IMG/VR virus record: IMGVR_UViG_3300045988_023530
Direction: 5' to 3' (one strand)
DNA: 6,233 nt
Source: a virus
The translations under genes and the position numbers were made by a program. The notes under the pieces were generated by a model. That model had not been told where the DNA came from. It saw nothing but the letters and a program-made list of their open reading frames with translations, and did not search any database. This document shows, in pieces, positions 1,163-6,233 of this stretch (positions within the stretch are counted from its first letter, which is position 1; each line of letters starts with the position of its first letter).

Positions 1163-3133
1163 TTACATTAAAGGTATCTGTGCTGCGCTCATAACTCGTC
1201 TTGCGATAATTCTCTTTCCGATTTGTACCCAGAAGTCTCGGTTGGTATCCGTGTTCGTTGCGAAGATATACGTATAGTCTTTCGGTGAGATATATGTACT
1301 GGGATTGGTAATTTCTCCAACATCGTTGACGTCATATATCCTGTTCAGGACCATGTAGCTTTCGGTTTCTCCTGCTGCGAAGTCTGCATACGTTCTGTTC
1401 ACGTCCGTCATGTAGTTCAGCCATGCAGGTTGCTTCCCTATTGCCTCATTAAGCCTAGCCCGTCCGTGCATCTGGTTGCTTAACAGGTCTTGGTATCCGA
1501 TTCCATCCAGCTGTGGTTTGTGCAGGTCGTCCATTGTGTCTAGCTGCACCATATCCCAGTCGTTACCCTGTGAGTAGTCTACGTTTGGTGTGATGCTTGC
1601 AATACCGATAATATAGCATGGTTCGTTACACTTGATTACGATTTTGCCACCTCTCTTTCCTCGGTTAAAACCACGTCCTGCCAGGCTTCCCAATGGTTCT
1701 TCTACTCCGCTCGCTGTTGATGCCGAGTTTGATACTACTGCTTCAAATTCGATTGTTGTCGACATACCTCCTTCATATACTGGAGTTTCGGCTCTGAAGT
1801 AGTAATCTGTTGTGTATACTGTCTCAATCCAGTCCTTGTAACTGCCTCCGCTGATTGCGATACGGTTCAGCATGTTGTACACTTTTTGTGCCAGGTTCAG
1901 TGCGTCCAGGTTAAGTTTTCCGTCGCTTACGTCTACGTCTGTTACTGCGTTGATTCCATTATCACCGTCTACCCACTCTTTATTGACCCAGTTGTTAAAC
2001 AGGTCTGACTGATATGTTTTTAAACATAAGCCACCCATTTCTGAGTTTACTATGGGGTATATTATCCTGTCTTTGTCAGTTTCTTCGTAATTTTCCGTGA
2101 ACAGTACTCTGTAGATGAAGTTTGATTTCAATTTTTCATCGCTATTTCTTCCGACTACGATTTTTTCACGTCCTTTACTCAGGATGTATTCCCTTAAGTC
2201 GTCGATTTCTGTTAACGGGAATGAGCTTGTGTATGCATTTGTTACTGTTCCCTGTTTAATGTTTTCGGTTGTTCCCTTAAGAGTTACACTTGTCCCTGGA
2301 TCTACTTGTATTGTTCGTGATGTTTTGTAATACTGTCCTGCTTTTGCTTTGATTATTATTTTGTTTTTTTCGACACTTACTTTTTCCCACGCATCGATAT
2401 CGACTATTTTTATGTATATAGGTTCTGAATCTAATGTGAATTTTATTTCTTTTATGTCTTCAAGTTTTATATCTGTTCCTGTAATTGTTACTGTAGTTGG
2501 AGCTGTACAGAAGAAGTCAAATGTATAGGTATTTTTATATACATTTCCCGTAAAATCTTCAGACACAATAGTCGTCGCATTCTGAATCGAGCTGCCACCC
2601 ATTACATAAAACCGTTCTTCCTGCTTATTGGCGTAATAGTTTTTAAAGACGTCATAGTATCCTAGGAATGGAACTATGTTGTATTCTTGTACTTCTGACG
2701 TTGTATACCATGGTTCTACTTTTACTCCTAGATATTCTGCTAATGATGCCTTCCCTTCTTTGTCCCCTTTGTTTCTCACATAGAATTCTGCCTTGGGAAG
2801 CTTTACTTTGCTCATATCCAGTCCGATATTGAGTGTGTTGTTATGCAGCATTGCGTTGTACAATCTGATGGGACACGTAAATACATCTGCCTGGAACTTG
2901 AAGTTTCCGAACAGCGGCCCGATAGTCGGATGTGTCATGATTTGTGTGTCCATATCTATCTCGAATGTGTCTCCTGGTAATCCCAACAGCTTCATGAATG
3001 GTACTAGTGTACCTACTCCCATAGGACTGCGCCAGGCACTTGACAGGTTATGTGTACTTCTTCCGTACTCCCTGAGGGATACCGACATCTTGTTGCTATC
3101 CCCTAGTGTGTTTTTTCCGATGTTTACTTTCAT
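1163..3133 (-). CDS. VP1: Major capsid protein VP1 (F-like), 656 aa
   Basis: The ORF track shows Microviridae capsid signatures throughout: RSTHNLS, GTLVPF, LPGDTF, YYDVFKNYYAN, KTYQSDLFNNW, LAGRGF, EPCYIIGIASITPNVDYSQG, PAWLNYMTDVNRTYADFA and FWVQIGKRIIARRVMS. The length fits the long Alpavirinae-type VP1. Confidence 0.95.
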   Translation of the reverse strand: MKVNIGKNTLGDSNKMSVSLREYGRSTHNLSSAWRSPMGVGTLVPFMKLLGLPGDTFEIDMDTQIMTHPTIGPLFGNFKFQADVFTCPIRLYNAMLHNNTLNIGLDMSKVKLPKAEFYVRNKGDKEGKASLAEYLGVKVEPWYTTSEVQEYNIVPFLGYYDVFKNYYANKQEERFYVMGGSSIQNATTIVSEDFTGNVYKNTYTFDFFCTAPTTVTITGTDIKLEDIKEIKFTLDSEPIYIKIVDIDAWEKVSVEKNKIIIKAKAGQYYKTSRTIQVDPGTSVTLKGTTENIKQGTVTNAYTSSFPLTEIDDLREYILSKGREKIVVGRNSDEKLKSNFIYRVLFTENYEETDKDRIIYPIVNSEMGGLCLKTYQSDLFNNWVNKEWVDGDNGINAVTDVDVSDGKLNLDALNLAQKVYNMLNRIAISGGSYKDWIETVYTTDYYFRAETPVYEGGMSTTIEFEAVVSNSASTASGVEEPLGSLAGRGFNRGKRGGKIVIKCNEPCYIIGIASITPNVDYSQGNDWDMVQLDTMDDLHKPQLDGIGYQDLLSNQMHGRARLNEAIGKQPAWLNYMTDVNRTYADFAAGETESYMVLNRIYDVNDVGEITNPSTYISPKDYTYIFATNTDTNRDFWVQIGKRIIARRVMSAAQIPLM

Positions 3134-3939: not shown

Positions 3940-4113
3940 TTATCCTACGATTTCGGTTATACTTACCACTTCTATTTGAATCCCGCTTGCTTTACATGCT
4001 TTGCACAGTTTTTCTGCTTCCAGCAAAGCGTGGAGCATCTTCTTCGCTCTTGTTAATCCTTCTAACATTCTTCCGTTGTTTAGATTCTTGTAAGTAATCA
4101 TAAAATTTTTCAT
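3940..4113 (-). CDS. Hypothetical protein, 57 aa (below the ORF-track size cutoff); first ORF after the predicted promoter
   Basis: Hand translation from ATG 4113..4111 to TAA 3942..3940 gives MKNFMITYKNLNNGRMLEGLTRAKKMLHALLEAEKLCKACKASGIQIEVVSITEIVG. It sits about 26 nt downstream of the predicted transcription start. Confidence 0.4.
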   Translation of the reverse strand: MKNFMITYKNLNNGRMLEGLTRAKKMLHALLEAEKLCKACKASGIQIEVVSITEIVG

Positions 4114-4145
4114 AACTGTAATCTTTTATTGGTTTTTCTGTATTA

Positions 4146-4176
4146 CAAATATACGCATTTTTTTCTAAAACACAAA
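4146..4176 (-). promoter_or_regulatory. Bacteroides-type promoter: -33 TTTG (4176..4173), 19-nt spacer, -7 TATATTTG (4153..4146)
   Basis: The minus strand reads TTTG-tgttttagaaaaaaatgcg-TATATTTG. This is an exact match to the Bacteroides consensus TTTG-N19-21-TAnnTTTG. It lies in the only large non-coding AT-rich region, upstream of the co-directional gene string. Confidence 0.55.
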
Positions 4177-4251
4177 ATTTTTGGCATTTCTTTTATTATA
4201 ATCAAATAATATTTTTTCTATTAAAAATAAATCTATATGTATATGATAGCC

Positions 4252-4356
4252 TGTTGAAACTGTTTATAACTATGTTAATTTATTCATTTTCAATCATTTA
4301 TCTTGTTCATAACTTTGTTGATAACTTTTCATTTATTTATTTGTATTGTTCATAAC
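4252..4356. repeat. Iteron array, orientation 1: TGTTnATAAC at 4261-4270, 4304-4313, 4316-4325 and 4347-4356 (degenerate copy at 4252-4260)
   Basis: The copies are tgtttataac, tgttcataac, tgttgataac and tgttcataac. Three of them are followed by ttt. Copies 2 and 3 are 12 nt apart. Confidence 0.7.
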
Positions 4357-4404
4357 TTTCTTCTGTAGTAAAACATTTGTCATTTCCAAATTTTAAGGCA
4401 TTTA

Positions 4405-4469
4405 TTTATCAACAAGTTATTAACAGGTTTATTAACCGATTTTGTTGGGTTATCAACAGGTTATCAACA
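4405..4469. repeat. Iteron array, opposite orientation: GTTATnAACA at 4405, 4416, 4428, 4449 and 4460 (about 11-nt phasing)
   Basis: The copies are tttatcaaca, gttattaaca, tttattaacc, gttatcaaca and gttatcaaca. Each is the reverse complement of the 4252-4356 motif. The core TTATCAACA is one mismatch from the DnaA box TTATCCACA. Confidence 0.7.
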
Positions 4470-4473
4470 CCCA

Positions 4474-4588
4474 CAAGCCGAATACTTGGAGGCTTGCATA
4501 TAGTTGGCAGCATGACCGCCCGAGAGCGTTGTCTCGGGCAGCAAGCTAGCCTTGCGTAGTCATGTTAATAATCGGAGCCGCAGGCTCC
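4474..4588. other. GC-rich structured island 3' of rep: a hairpin (4474-4496), a perfect three-way junction (4511-4564) and a hairpin (4574-4588)
   Basis: The first hairpin is caagcc/ggcttg. The junction has P1 catgac (4511-4516) with gtcatg (4559-4564), P2 gcccgaga (4518-4525) with tctcgggc (4532-4539), and P3 gcaag (4541-4545) with cttgc (4551-4555). The last hairpin is ggagcc-gca-ggctcc. GC by hand count is 72/130 over 4471-4600. Confidence 0.6.
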
Positions 4589-4603
4589 CTACCTTCTGGT
4601 CAC

Positions 4604-5569
4604 TCAAGGATGGCGAAGCTGGCGAAGTTTTCGAGCATTTAGCCTTGCTTGGCGCATTTTTTCCAGCCTTGCCTTGACTTTCTCTCGTTCCCAGTCTTCT
4701 GGGTTATCTCCATATAGAAGCTCGGCTCTTCTTTGGTAATATCTTGTCAGATTCTCCCATTCTTCCAGATTATCCGTGCTTACCTTCTCTCCTGCTATGT
4801 ATCGGTATCCTCTTTCCTGCTTGATTATCCACAGGTTCTCACGCTCTTCTTCGGTGTATAGTTTGTCATGGTAATACTTTGGCAATGGTAGTTCATTTCC
4901 GTCTTCCAGTTTGTAGGTCTCTTTTGTTTCCTTACCTCTGTAACGGTTTCTTTTGGCGTTATAGCTCGTTTCGTATTTGCTTCCTATCCCTGCGCTGCAC
5001 ATTACTTTTCCTCTGAAATCAGGCCATTTCTCGCATATCTTCAGCATGTACTTAGTTACATATGCAATAGTTGTCTGGTTAACATAATCTCCTATGTAGG
5101 TGTATCCGTACCCCCAATGGTTTATTCTTTCTTTCGGACACCATACTATTCCATGTAAGTGTATTCTTCCGTAGTCTTCTCCCTTTTCTGTGACCATCCA
5201 GTGTCTGATGGACTTTCCCGTTTTTTTCCGGATTCTTTCCAGCCATCTTCTCACAGCTACCTTGCACATCTCGTTTTGTTCGGTATAGTTCAGGTTTTCC
5301 TTACTTTTCTTGAACAGCTCCCACGACAGTTTCTGGTAATTTTCTTCGTTGAATGTCAGTGTAATAAATAGTGCGTTAGGATTGTTTTTCAACTCTTCTG
5401 CCAGTCTTATCCTCCAGTTTCTCGCTTTTTCCTTCCGGCATTCGATACATTTTCCGCATTTTGTCGGCACATATCTTAACCTTTCATCATTGCATTCTGG
5501 TACATTTCCTTGATTTTTCTTGGTGTACATGTACTTTTTGTTTAATATATATTTGGTATATAAGCACAT
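4604..5569 (-). CDS. VP4: Replication initiation protein VP4 (HUH rolling-circle endonuclease, phiX174 A-like), 321 aa from ATG 5569
   Basis: The ORF-track frame is 4604..5713. I place the start at ATG 5569..5567 (MCLYTKY...) because microvirus VP4 proteins typically start with MC, and the 48 upstream codons cross the GC-rich structured island. Motifs present are the Cys cluster CGKCIECRKEK, RCR motif 1 FITLTF, the HUH motif IHLHGIVW, and the two-Tyr motif 3 YVTKYMLK (compare phiX174 A YVAKY). Confidence 0.9.
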   Translation of the reverse strand: MCLYTKYILNKKYMYTKKNQGNVPECNDERLRYVPTKCGKCIECRKEKARNWRIRLAEELKNNPNALFITLTFNEENYQKLSWELFKKSKENLNYTEQNEMCKVAVRRWLERIRKKTGKSIRHWMVTEKGEDYGRIHLHGIVWCPKERINHWGYGYTYIGDYVNQTTIAYVTKYMLKICEKWPDFRGKVMCSAGIGSKYETSYNAKRNRYRGKETKETYKLEDGNELPLPKYYHDKLYTEEERENLWIIKQERGYRYIAGEKVSTDNLEEWENLTRYYQRRAELLYGDNPEDWEREKVKARLEKMRQARLNARKLRQLRHP

Positions 5570-5635
5570 AGTTAAAATTGTTTCACGTGGAACATAAATA
5601 AAAAAATAGAACAGCACAATGTATGTAGCATTATG

Positions 5636-5818
5636 GTCTGGCACGCTTGCGTGCCTGGCCTCTGGTGCATACGTTGTACTGTTCTTAGGCGAGCGCCGAT
5701 TGAGCTCCATCAAATAACGAGTCCCGCATGGTGCGTTAGGGATAGGAGGCGAGTATGGCCTTTAGGCCATTTGTCTGAGCCGGATAGCCCGACCCCCTTG
5801 CGGGGTAACGCCCCCTAT
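5636..5818. other. GC-rich structured island between the VP2 stop and the rep start
   Basis: A 10-bp closing helix (5742-5751 with 5809-5818) has one G.T wobble when read on the minus strand. It encloses hairpin atggcc-ttta-ggccat (5755-5770) and hairpin CCCC-GCAA-GGGG (minus strand, 5794-5805). A separate 6-bp hairpin ggcacg-cttg-cgtgcc lies at 5640-5655. GC by hand count is 104/175 over 5641-5815. Confidence 0.55.
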
Positions 5819-6233
5819 AATTTTTCTACAATCATCTTGATAACTTTTCCAAGCAGCCTTGCGTATTCTCCTTGGCCTGTCATCTCTTCCAGCATTTTGC
5901 TGAATGCCTGGTCTTGATCCAGTTCCCAGTCTTCTCTTTCGTATTTTTTTAACATTAGCTTTATTTCCTGAGTCGGCTTGGTCATCTCGTCCAGCTTTCC
6001 TTGTGCGATTAGTCCTATATCATTGCTTAGCTTGTCGAGAATCTTCTTGTCGAATAGCATCTTCTTTTCGTCGTGAGACAGTGCTGCTATGTCTTTTTTG
6101 AAGTTTCCGTAGTACCTTTCTATTACGGAGTCCTCCCATCCATAAGACTTTCCGTTCTCGTACCATACGCTCGATTTGATAACCTTGTTCAAGTCGTCCT
6201 GGAACTGTGCGATTCTGGTCTGTACTTCCTTGT
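5815..6233 (-). CDS. VP2: VP2 DNA pilot / minor capsid protein, C-terminal part (6157-6233 duplicates 1-77; unique part is 6156..5815)
   Basis: It is in the same frame as 726..1. The ORF-track entry 5815..6192 starts at a TTG (caa at 6190-6192), which is an internal Leu codon of the longer wrapped ORF (...QFQDDLNKVIKSSVWYENGKSYGW...). The stop is TAG at 5817..5815. The joined product is 726 + 342 nt, or 355 aa. Confidence 0.8.
   Translation of the reverse strand, partial: KEVQTRIAQFQDDLNKVIKSSVWYENGKSYGWEDSVIERYYGNFKKDIAALSHDEKKMLFDKKILDKLSNDIGLIAQGKLDEMTKPTQEIKLMLKKYEREDWELDQDQAFSKMLEEMTGQGEYARLLGKVIKMIVEKL
6157..6233. repeat. Terminal direct repeat, copy 2 (identical to 1-77)
   Basis: This is the same 77-mer as 1-77. 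The length matches a typical assembler k-mer overlap, so it is most likely redundancy of a circular molecule rather than a biological repeat. Confidence 0.95.

Follow-up and report, generated by a model that had tools for sequence, protein, structure and literature searches.

Genomic Context of the Box Arrays

The window analyzed here, which corresponds to the whole 6,233-nt stretch of the viral record IMGVR_UViG_3300045988_023530 (IMG/VR), harbors two oppositely oriented arrays of a 10-nt box within its main intergenic region (4114-4603), placed between the stop codon of the replication protein gene (rep) and the first of a series of small open reading frames (ORFs). An exact 77-nt direct repeat was found at both window ends (1-77 = 6157-6233), indicating that the window comprises a complete circular genome of ~6156 nt, and every gene was located on the minus strand. 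Owing to a gene content that includes Rep and a Phage_F capsid protein, the virus is a microvirus, whose virion (coding) strand is the minus strand of the window. Rep (VP4-like; 4604..5569, minus strand), whose stop codon borders the intergenic region, matched the Pfam family REP_ORF2-G2P (E = 7e-11), VP1 (1163-3133, minus strand) is the Phage_F major capsid protein, and a 355-aa ORF running across the circle junction (726 back to 5815, minus strand) is probably the pilot protein. The first small ORF, of 57 aa (3940..4113, minus strand), lies downstream of the promoter region, with additional small ORFs and VP1 after it. No Rfam match was found anywhere in the window at E ≤ 1.

Layout and Conservation of the Arrays

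The 10-mer GTTATNAACA occurred in seven exact copies in the window, all of them inside 4261-4469, with four on the minus strand (4261, 4304, 4316, and 4347) and three on the plus strand (4416, 4449, and 4460). The expectation was 0.08 copies for dinucleotide shuffles of the whole window, none of the 200 reaching seven, and 0.019 for a simulation based on the composition of 4114-4470 (22% GC), in which none of 20,000 runs reached this number. With seven copies observed vs. 0.02-0.08 expected, chance and low complexity were excluded as the source of the repeats. Three degenerate copies were also observed, at 4405-4414 (TTTATCAACA), 4428-4437 (TTTATTAACC), and 4252-4260 (TGTTGAAAC), the last of which carried a single-base deletion.

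These copies are distributed in two arrays of five boxes each, with the form (G)TTATNAACA. Array A (4405..4469, plus strand) comprises the boxes 4405-4414 (TTTATCAACA), 4416-4425 (GTTATTAACA), 4428-4437 (the degenerate TTTATTAACC), 4449-4458, and 4460-4469 (both GTTATCAACA), and array B (4252..4356, minus strand) comprises exact boxes at 4347-4356, 4316-4325, 4304-4313, and 4261-4270, spaced by 31/12/43/10 together with a degenerate one at 4252-4260 (GTTTCAACA), which was invariant among relatives. A first-pass annotation had described four to five copies opposed to five, with the plus-strand ones spaced by about 11 nt, and both statements were confirmed, since four exact plus one degenerate copies were found vs. 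three exact plus two degenerate ones, and the starts in array A were 11, 12, 21, and 11 nt apart. It had also been stated that the arrays face each other; however, when read as 5′-TTAT..ACA-3′, the boxes point away from the 48-nt spacer (4357..4404) in a back-to-back arrangement. This spacer contains an invariant TTAAAATTTGGAA (virion strand), and the box-to-box distance over it was fixed at 59-60 in all relatives. The spacings within the arrays correspond to whole helical turns, which places the ten boxes on the same face of the DNA, the 43-, 12-, and 31-nt steps of array B being equivalent to four, one, and three turns, respectively.

Relatives were collected via Rep and via a clade-specific DNA signature. 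In ~19 genomes with Rep identities of 56-98%, the number, orientation, and spacing of the boxes were kept (array A, 11/21/12/11; gap, 59-60; array B, 31/12/43), so that motif and copy number, whose conservation in relatives the first-pass annotation had set as a check, were both maintained. At Rep identities of 54-55% (L012, L078, and L090), both arrays were present with slightly changed spacing, and at 45-52% (L014-L017) they were missing, with no equivalent repeat substituted for them. The intergenic region was better conserved than the flanking coding sequence, and the arrays remained unchanged among relatives in which the first downstream small ORF varied. The arrays are under strong purifying selection. 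As for the genomes devoid of them, L014 (OP549868; Rep identity of 52%) carried a different two-copy repeat, (A)TATCAA(A/T)TTTGTTGAAT, at the equivalent intergenic position (4830-4870), where L015 presented a long inverted repeat, CTTGCAAAGATAAATAGCATATAG ... CTATATGCTATTTATCTATCTTGCAAG.

Relationship of the Box to the DnaA-Box Consensus

The E. coli DnaA-box consensus, in both its strict and relaxed forms, has a C at position 6. To avoid circularity in the comparison with this consensus, the ten box slots were set by alignment columns, and not by motif matching, which resulted in 98 box instances from 10 relatives. The slot table yielded the consensus (G)TT[A>>T]TNAAC[A>>C](R), in which T2 and T4 were found in all 98 instances and A6, A7, and C8 in 97 each; position 3 was A in 86 and T in 12, position 9 was A in 87 and C in 11, and position 5 was occupied by C (38), G (31), T (23), or A (6). 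The phage 9-mer TT[A/T]TNAACA is therefore the DnaA box TT[A/T]TNCACA with a C6→A change, and its degenerate positions 3 and 5 are precisely the two at which the DnaA consensus also varies. The first-pass claim that TTATCAACA differs from TTATCCACA at a single position was correct. Eight exact copies of TTATNAACA were found in the arrays and a ninth in the neighboring GC-rich block, their sole mismatch to the DnaA consensus being at position 6. Two boxes of L090 were changed to TTTTCAACA, which is also permitted by the DnaA consensus. When either array is read on the virion strand, the free central base is a purine, in line with the compositional skew of this strand, which marks the position as neutral. 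The earlier view of the repeats as real, phased, conserved in relatives, and DnaA-box-like was supported.

Variants of this kind have been reported elsewhere. TTATCAACA and TTATTAACA are the commonest non-consensus DnaA boxes in the first-step-transfer region of T5-like phages (bioRxiv 10.1101/866236), TGTTGATAAG adjoins TGTGGATAAC in a Thermoanaerobacter oriC probe (PMC1888806), and TT(T/A)TCAACA has been proposed as the mollicute DnaA box (PMC3322544). Moreover, the Bacillus subtilis DnaA binds boxes carrying one to three mismatches (PMC4447404).

Other recognition sequences were considered. The consensus of the integration host factor (IHF) is WATCAANNNNTTR, which tandem boxes spell when N = C; this reading was rejected, because N varies freely between relatives. 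In the window, such tandem boxes read TATCAACAGGTTA at 4451-4463 (plus strand), a fit to the IHF consensus that is probably incidental. XerCD/dif-like and parS-like readings were also considered, and no convincing match was seen.

Occurrence of the Box in Bacterial Origins and Other Phages

A scan of one genome per bacterial or archaeal species for two copies of the 10-mer placed 1-2 nt apart returned at least 120 loci. Among the matches listed, a dnaA-like gene was located immediately beside the paired motif in 21 of 120 loci, while only ~0.3% of random sites are expected to be that close to dnaA, and all eight neighbors tested corresponded to DnaA by Pfam (Bac_DnaA plus Bac_DnaA_C). The dnaA-adjacent matches listed included members of Clostridia, Peptostreptococcaceae, Tissierellaceae, Tenericutes, Saccharibacteria, Bdellovibrionota, Deltaproteobacteria, Spirochaetota, Melioribacteraceae, and the Bacteroidales species Alistipes onderdonkii. 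In these dnaA-flanking origins, the 10-mer alternated in register with the canonical TTATCCACA, and the distances between A-variant and canonical boxes, which were not imposed by the search pattern, were of 11, 12, 21, 22, 31, 32, 42, or 43 nt. The spacing of mixed pairs in bacterial origins therefore follows the same grammar as the phage arrays. In Roseburia L250, the box was followed by tccc-(CTA)6, the signature of DnaA-trios, and in Alistipes L221 (Bacteroidales) the paired motif was found within a canonical box cluster upstream of dnaA. The variant with A at position 6 thus constitutes a regular and phased part of dnaA-flanking origins in many phyla, a finding of use to origin-prediction tools that are restricted to the E. 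coli consensus.

One of these origins deserves a separate description. In the uncultured Tenericutes L198 (dnaA, 389-1774), the flanking cluster was composed of seven position-6-A boxes and no canonical box, and the DnaA domain IV signature was RNHSTI; most other DnaA matches have D there (e.g., RDHTTV). This case is a hint that lineages may differ in the position-6 specificity of their initiators.

The box was also observed in unrelated large phage contigs, which presented perfect tandem arrays of the 10-mer with an 11-nt period, comprising seven copies in L131 (4593-4668), five in L073 (4124-4177), and four in L080 (6574-6616). The arrays of L073 and L080 adjoined canonical TGTGGATAA and repeated CCGTGCAAAC iterons, and L035, in which boxes were interleaved with TTATTCACA (2758-3010), resembled a T5-type terminal region. 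The arrays are probably replication origins or DnaA-box clusters of double-stranded DNA (dsDNA) phages. The genes flanking them in large phage contigs included no replication initiator by Pfam or PHROGs, and only RusA, HNH endonucleases, and an AAA ATPase were found. The presence of 10-mer arrays in unrelated phages and in bacterial origins indicated that the motif is private neither to this virus nor to its Rep.

Predicted Host and Bacteroidota Arrays

None of the genes in the window was preceded by a Shine-Dalgarno sequence, their leaders were A-rich, and a single coding-strand match to the Bacteroidota promoter form TTTG-N19-TAnnTTTG was found (4176->4146). The absence of Shine-Dalgarno sequences, A-rich leaders, and the TTTG/TAnnTTTG promoter are features described for Bacteroidetes (PMC6847099, PMC3155529, PMC7366714), and, judging from these signals, the host is probably a member of Bacteroidota. 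By tblastn, neither Rep nor VP1 was found in any of the 120 genome loci listed, i.e., no prophage copy was detected in them. Small contigs of ~6 kb from metagenome-assembled genomes (L168, L199, L211, and others) were considered as phage copies and rejected, as they are unrelated chromosomal fragments.

Bacteroidota accounted for 35 of the 120 genome loci among the matches listed. Of the 16 listed Bacteroidota loci with at least three boxes, 14 were composed purely of the A variant, with no canonical box nearby, as in the phage, whereas in other phyla the arrays often mixed A-variant and canonical boxes. This pure composition might serve as a host-prediction signal. Individual cases included nine position-6-A boxes in alternating orientation beside a very AT-rich stretch in Rikenella L254 (1-260), five tandem boxes after a tRNA-like sequence in Muribaculaceae L142 (4729-4790), and three boxes just upstream of dnaB in Bacteroidaceae L140 (2873-2894). 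Further pure position-6-A arrays devoid of canonical boxes were located in the Bacteroidota chromosomes L226 (5074-5110) and L241 (1307-1345).

Elements Adjoining the Arrays

Directly after the last box of array B lies a near-invariant segment (4227..4251, minus strand), which reads GGCTATCATATACATATAGATTTAT on the virion strand and occupies the place at which, in real oriC sequences, DnaA-trios are found and unwinding begins. The triplets after its GG are CTA TCA TAT ACA TAT AGA, of which only the first fits the trio motif 5′-[C/T]TA-3′; L012 has two trios (CTA TTA) and Roseburia L250 has six. The segment is part of the AT-rich tract at 4141-4260, whose G+C content (22/120, 0.183) was the same as counted by hand in the first-pass annotation. 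Boxes B4-B5 (4261-4270 and 4252-4260) point to this tract, like the proximal box of Roseburia L250, and the proposed resemblance of the succession of AT-rich tract, array, and opposed array to chromosomal origins was upheld. The rest of the tract (4141..4226, minus strand) carries the promoter-like sites of the operon containing the small ORFs and VP1, namely a sigma-70-like site, TTAATA-N18-TATAAT (4224->4195, minus strand), and the Bacteroidota-type site mentioned above, TTTG-N19-TATATTTG (4176->4146, minus strand). Both TATATTTG and GATTATAAT were conserved in the alignment of relatives.

On the other side, between the Rep stop codon and array A, a GC-rich block (4470..4603, minus strand) forms four hairpins and a closing stem. 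Its DNA fold had a z of -3.7, and covariation analysis revealed that 252 of 252 cells were paired, with seven compensatory pairs, vs. 32-42% paired in slid controls. This block is a structured element separate from the arrays; it was missing in L008-L010 and L012, which retain the arrays, and thus constitutes a portable module, which may serve to prime the complementary strand, as a hairpin for Rep, or as a terminator. An 11th box-like 9-mer, TTATTAACA (4563-4571), was found in an unpaired linker of the block, at a fixed distance of 101-102 nt from array A, and the loop of its last hairpin reads TCCAAGTATTC.

A second GC-rich structured block was observed between the VP2 stop and the Rep start (5570-5814, minus strand), with a fold z of -2.9 and compensatory changes among relatives. 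At the exact-match level it was confined to the clade (eight contigs); its first half was clearly homologous to 1190-1275 of the distant relative L015 (MG945282), where it is found downstream of Rep, with one stem swapped from GGCC/GGCC to CCCCC/GGGGG, in a genome devoid of DnaA-box arrays. The start codon of Rep was picked by homology and upstream context. The frame stays open for 48 more codons upstream of the homology-supported ATG at 5569, up to a TTG at 5713, and this 5′ extension (5570-5713, minus strand) overlaps the structured block and has no backing from relatives. The annotated 369-aa Rep ORF is probably too long.

Putative Role of the Arrays in Phage Replication

Based on sequence features, the arrays are interpreted, with moderate confidence, as a DnaA-box cluster for the host initiator with an oriC-like layout, and not as Rep-specific iterons. 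The type of DNA on which such a cluster would act is suggested by its architecture. Helical phasing, including the 31- and 43-nt steps, matters only in a duplex; two opposed arrays of close low-affinity sites are found in the DnaA-assembly region of E. coli; the array adjoining the AT-rich tract is oriented towards it like the proximal box of the Roseburia oriC; and the fixed spacer and the invariant inter-box sequence suggest a defined nucleoprotein complex. All these features favor an action on the replicative form, and replication initiation on the duplex is favored over priming on single-stranded DNA (ssDNA) and over promoter control as the putative function. In the proposed mechanism, DnaA, probably as ATP-DnaA binding low-affinity sites cooperatively, would oligomerize on the arrays of the duplex replicative form, and the resulting complex would promote melting of the neighboring AT-rich DNA, recruitment of the replicative helicase of the host, or both. 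Phage replication would then start or be boosted, coupled to the initiation potential of the host, and nicking would still be performed by the HUH Rep.

A stronger version of this proposal, in which the cluster would function as a DnaA-dependent origin although the ssDNA phage is of the rolling-circle type, either as an ABC-primosome-type site for single- to double-strand conversion or as an oriC-like origin allowing plasmid-like, Rep-independent replication and perhaps persistence of the replicative form, is considered rather unlikely. If true, a branch of Microviridae would depend on the host DnaA, contrasting with the phiX174 paradigm, and carrier states could be explained by Rep-independent persistence, in analogy to the extrachromosomal dsDNA form reported for FLiP, an ssDNA phage, in a Flavobacterium host (PMC12781566).

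Several observations weigh against the arrays being a cluster for the host DnaA. No canonical TT[A/T]TNCACA was found in 4114-4603, and thus no high-affinity anchor box is present; the sole TTATCCACA of the genome (4825-4833, plus strand), located inside Rep in the orientation of array A, was at chance level (0.73 expected) and not conserved in L008-L010. The affinity of the boxes may be low, since position 6 is A in all of them and C in the E. coli consensus. Next to the proximal box, a single triplet fits the DnaA-trio element of the bacterial basal unwinding system, which calls for three or more in a row, and the AT-rich tract need not be an unwinding element, since it holds both promoter-like sites and doubles as the promoter region. 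Among the matches listed, only one of the 35 Bacteroidota loci was beside dnaA, and another Bacteroidota protein could read the pure A-variant arrays. Within the limits of tblastn sensitivity, pairs of canonical TTATCCACA were associated with no detectable microvirus among the 119 viral contigs listed. Finally, phiX174-type microviruses are not known to use DnaA in their replication, and no precedent for its involvement is known in this family.

The inverted arrangement of the arrays, conserved in a genome that is single-stranded in the virion, could alternatively correspond to a natural A-site, in which both arrays would pair in virion ssDNA and rebuild duplex boxes, DnaA would load the helicase, and primase would start the complementary strand. 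In the predicted centroid of the virion strand, a 19-bp stem pairs boxes A4-A5 with B3-B2; it was 96% paired over 10 relatives, its mismatches are confined to N and the flank, at which no specific base is required by DnaA, and a hairpin with a single DnaA box on M13 ssDNA suffices for DnaA-dependent DnaB loading and replication (PMC6127211). However, 17 of the 19 pairs never vary and both variable positions break pairing (N is unpaired in six of 10 sequences), so that covariation is absent and a selected hairpin between the arrays is not supported; the neighboring GC block, by contrast, compensates every change, indicating that box identity alone explains the inverted symmetry. In addition, the unequal partner spacings (11 vs. 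12) force a bulge in every genome, boxes A4/A5 of L090 underwent a T->A change without compensation in array B, the outer stem was lost in L008 and L010, and the fold was barely better than shuffles (z = -2.1). Neither ten boxes nor the 31/43 helical phasing would be needed for an A-site, and two covariation-supported hairpin modules are already present that could serve single-strand functions. This explanation is regarded as improbable. A similarly low probability is attributed to a regulatory or titrating role, in which DnaA or another factor bound to the arrays would control the small-ORF/capsid promoter, or the many copies of the replicative form would act as a DnaA sink like datA or the B. 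subtilis DnaA-box clusters, thereby perturbing initiation in the host. DnaA is a known transcription factor, clusters of its boxes have been described at sites other than oriC (PMC4447404; PMC3245932), and one Bacteroidaceae array is located upstream of dnaB. In the window, the upstream distances from the sigma-70-like -35 and the Bacteroidota-type -33 elements to the nearest box (4252-4260) are ~28 and ~76 nt, respectively, and the remaining boxes follow in helical phase. Nevertheless, no box overlaps a promoter element, the downstream small ORFs change between relatives while the arrays are constant, and the rigid spacing, the invariant inter-box sequence, the second opposed array, and the gap of 59-60 nt exceed the needs of an operator or a sink.

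The location of the arrays directly downstream of rep and near hairpins, as well as their 11-nt period, would also be expected of iterons of a rolling-circle double-strand origin, bound by the HUH Rep of the phage, which would nick nearby. The nick core of phiX174 and pC194-type origins is CTTG|ATA, the virion-strand box TGTTGATAAC contains the similar TTGATA, and the loop of the nearest hairpin contains AGTATT. Yet TTGATA requires a G at N, where many copies have A, no phiX-type origin core is present, and the hairpin block is missing in some array-bearing relatives. The first-pass annotation had raised both the iterons of circular Rep-encoding single-stranded (CRESS) DNA viruses and rolling-circle plasmids and, as a weak hint, a phiX174-like nick site. 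The former is disfavored, since the repeat sequence was constant over Rep identities of 54-98%, was missing, with nothing in its place, in Rep homologues at 45-52%, and was present beside dnaA and in large phages at loci without a match to this Rep or VP1 (tblastn over the listed loci, related microviruses aside). As for the latter, the letters quoted for the minus strand (4427..4405) were correct, but AACTTG was not conserved, reading AAGTTG in L008, AAATTG in L010, and AACTTA in L012, and the phiX174 origin core, CAACTTG|ATATTAATAAC, had no match in the window with up to three mismatches. A search for a nick-site k-mer shared by all Rep-homologous genomes retrieved only A-rich low-complexity words. 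Binding by the cognate Rep is thus regarded as very improbable. The same applies to the possibility that the arrays are sites for a different protein of the host lineage with DnaA-box-like specificity, which would explain the pure A-variant arrays of Bacteroidota, their lack of canonical boxes in 14 of the 16 listed multi-copy loci, and their rarity beside dnaA. The strict A at position 6 (97 of 98 slots) likewise suggests positive selection for this base, beyond mere tolerance. On the other hand, no such protein is known, the sites vary at exactly the positions that vary in DnaA boxes, the Alistipes paired motif is inserted in a canonical cluster upstream of dnaA, and the variant is directly interleaved with canonical boxes in other phyla.

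Significance and Comparison with Known Systems

Knowledge on microvirus replication rests almost wholly on phiX174-type phages of E. coli, and the far larger uncultured diversity of gut microviruses has no mapped origin and no known host-factor requirement. In this context, the cluster predicts DnaA as a host factor, a binding region of ~220 bp with ten defined sites, and phenotypes for box mutants. If confirmed, a rolling-circle ssDNA phage would have borrowed the host initiator, tying its replication or expression to the initiation status of the host. DnaA-box clusters, including those borrowed by phages and plasmids, are already known; what is new is the setting of a rolling-circle ssDNA microvirus, with ten pure position-6-A boxes in two rigid arrays conserved clade-wide. 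No literature linking Microviridae to DnaA boxes or iterons was found, which is weak evidence, since most subscription journals were outside the coverage of the search.

The arrays share with chromosomal oriC regions a 9-mer degenerate at positions 3 and 5, sites placed 2-3 bp apart (11-12 nt period) or by whole turns, two opposed arrays, an AT-rich tract placed relative to the adjoining array as it is in Roseburia L250, and the identical 10-mer found beside dnaA. The relative orientation of AT-rich DNA and box is also that of the DNA unwinding element (DUE) and R1 in E. coli (DUE-R1). In the E. coli oriC, low-affinity sites are grouped in fours at 2-bp intervals, forming two arrays of opposite orientation (PMC6070618). 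Unlike these origins, the phage boxes are all A6, with neither a canonical anchor nor a run of DnaA-trios, the AT-rich tract also holds the promoter-like sites, and the element belongs to a 6-kb ssDNA phage with an HUH rolling-circle Rep, and not to a theta replicon.

Borrowing of the host initiator via clustered DnaA boxes is also found in other mobile elements, such as P1 oriR, RK2 oriV, pSC101, lambda, and the T5 first-step-transfer region. In T5-like phages, the variants TTATCAACA and TTATTAACA themselves occur within inverted repeats (bioRxiv 10.1101/866236), and the large phage contigs L073, L080, and L035 associate tandem A-variant boxes with canonical ones and with further iterons. The replicons named above, however, are double-stranded and mostly encode their own iteron-binding initiator, whereas the microvirus has no separate iterons and its initiator is the nicking enzyme. 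The A-sites of the ABC primosome (R6K and M13-A-site constructs) resemble the phage region in the single-stranded circular template and in the inverted boxes that can pair, but one box in a stable hairpin suffices there (PMC6127211), while here ten phased boxes are found, with unequal partner spacing and no covariation in the stem.

Among rolling-circle systems, the phage shares with phiX174 a Microviridae genome, an HUH Rep, AT-rich DNA, and TAATAAC-like strings. In phiX174, the origin consists of one 30-nt site within gene A; the region described here, in contrast, is intergenic, comprises ten repeats that are shared with bacterial origins, and has no match to the phiX core. Repeats with an 11-nt period near hairpins and next to or downstream of rep are likewise found in the 'bind' locus of the pMV158 double-strand origin (three 11-bp direct repeats) and in CRESS iterons. 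Each of those repeats is tied to its own Rep and diverges along with it, whereas the phage repeats are constant over divergent Reps and correspond to variants of the host DnaA box.

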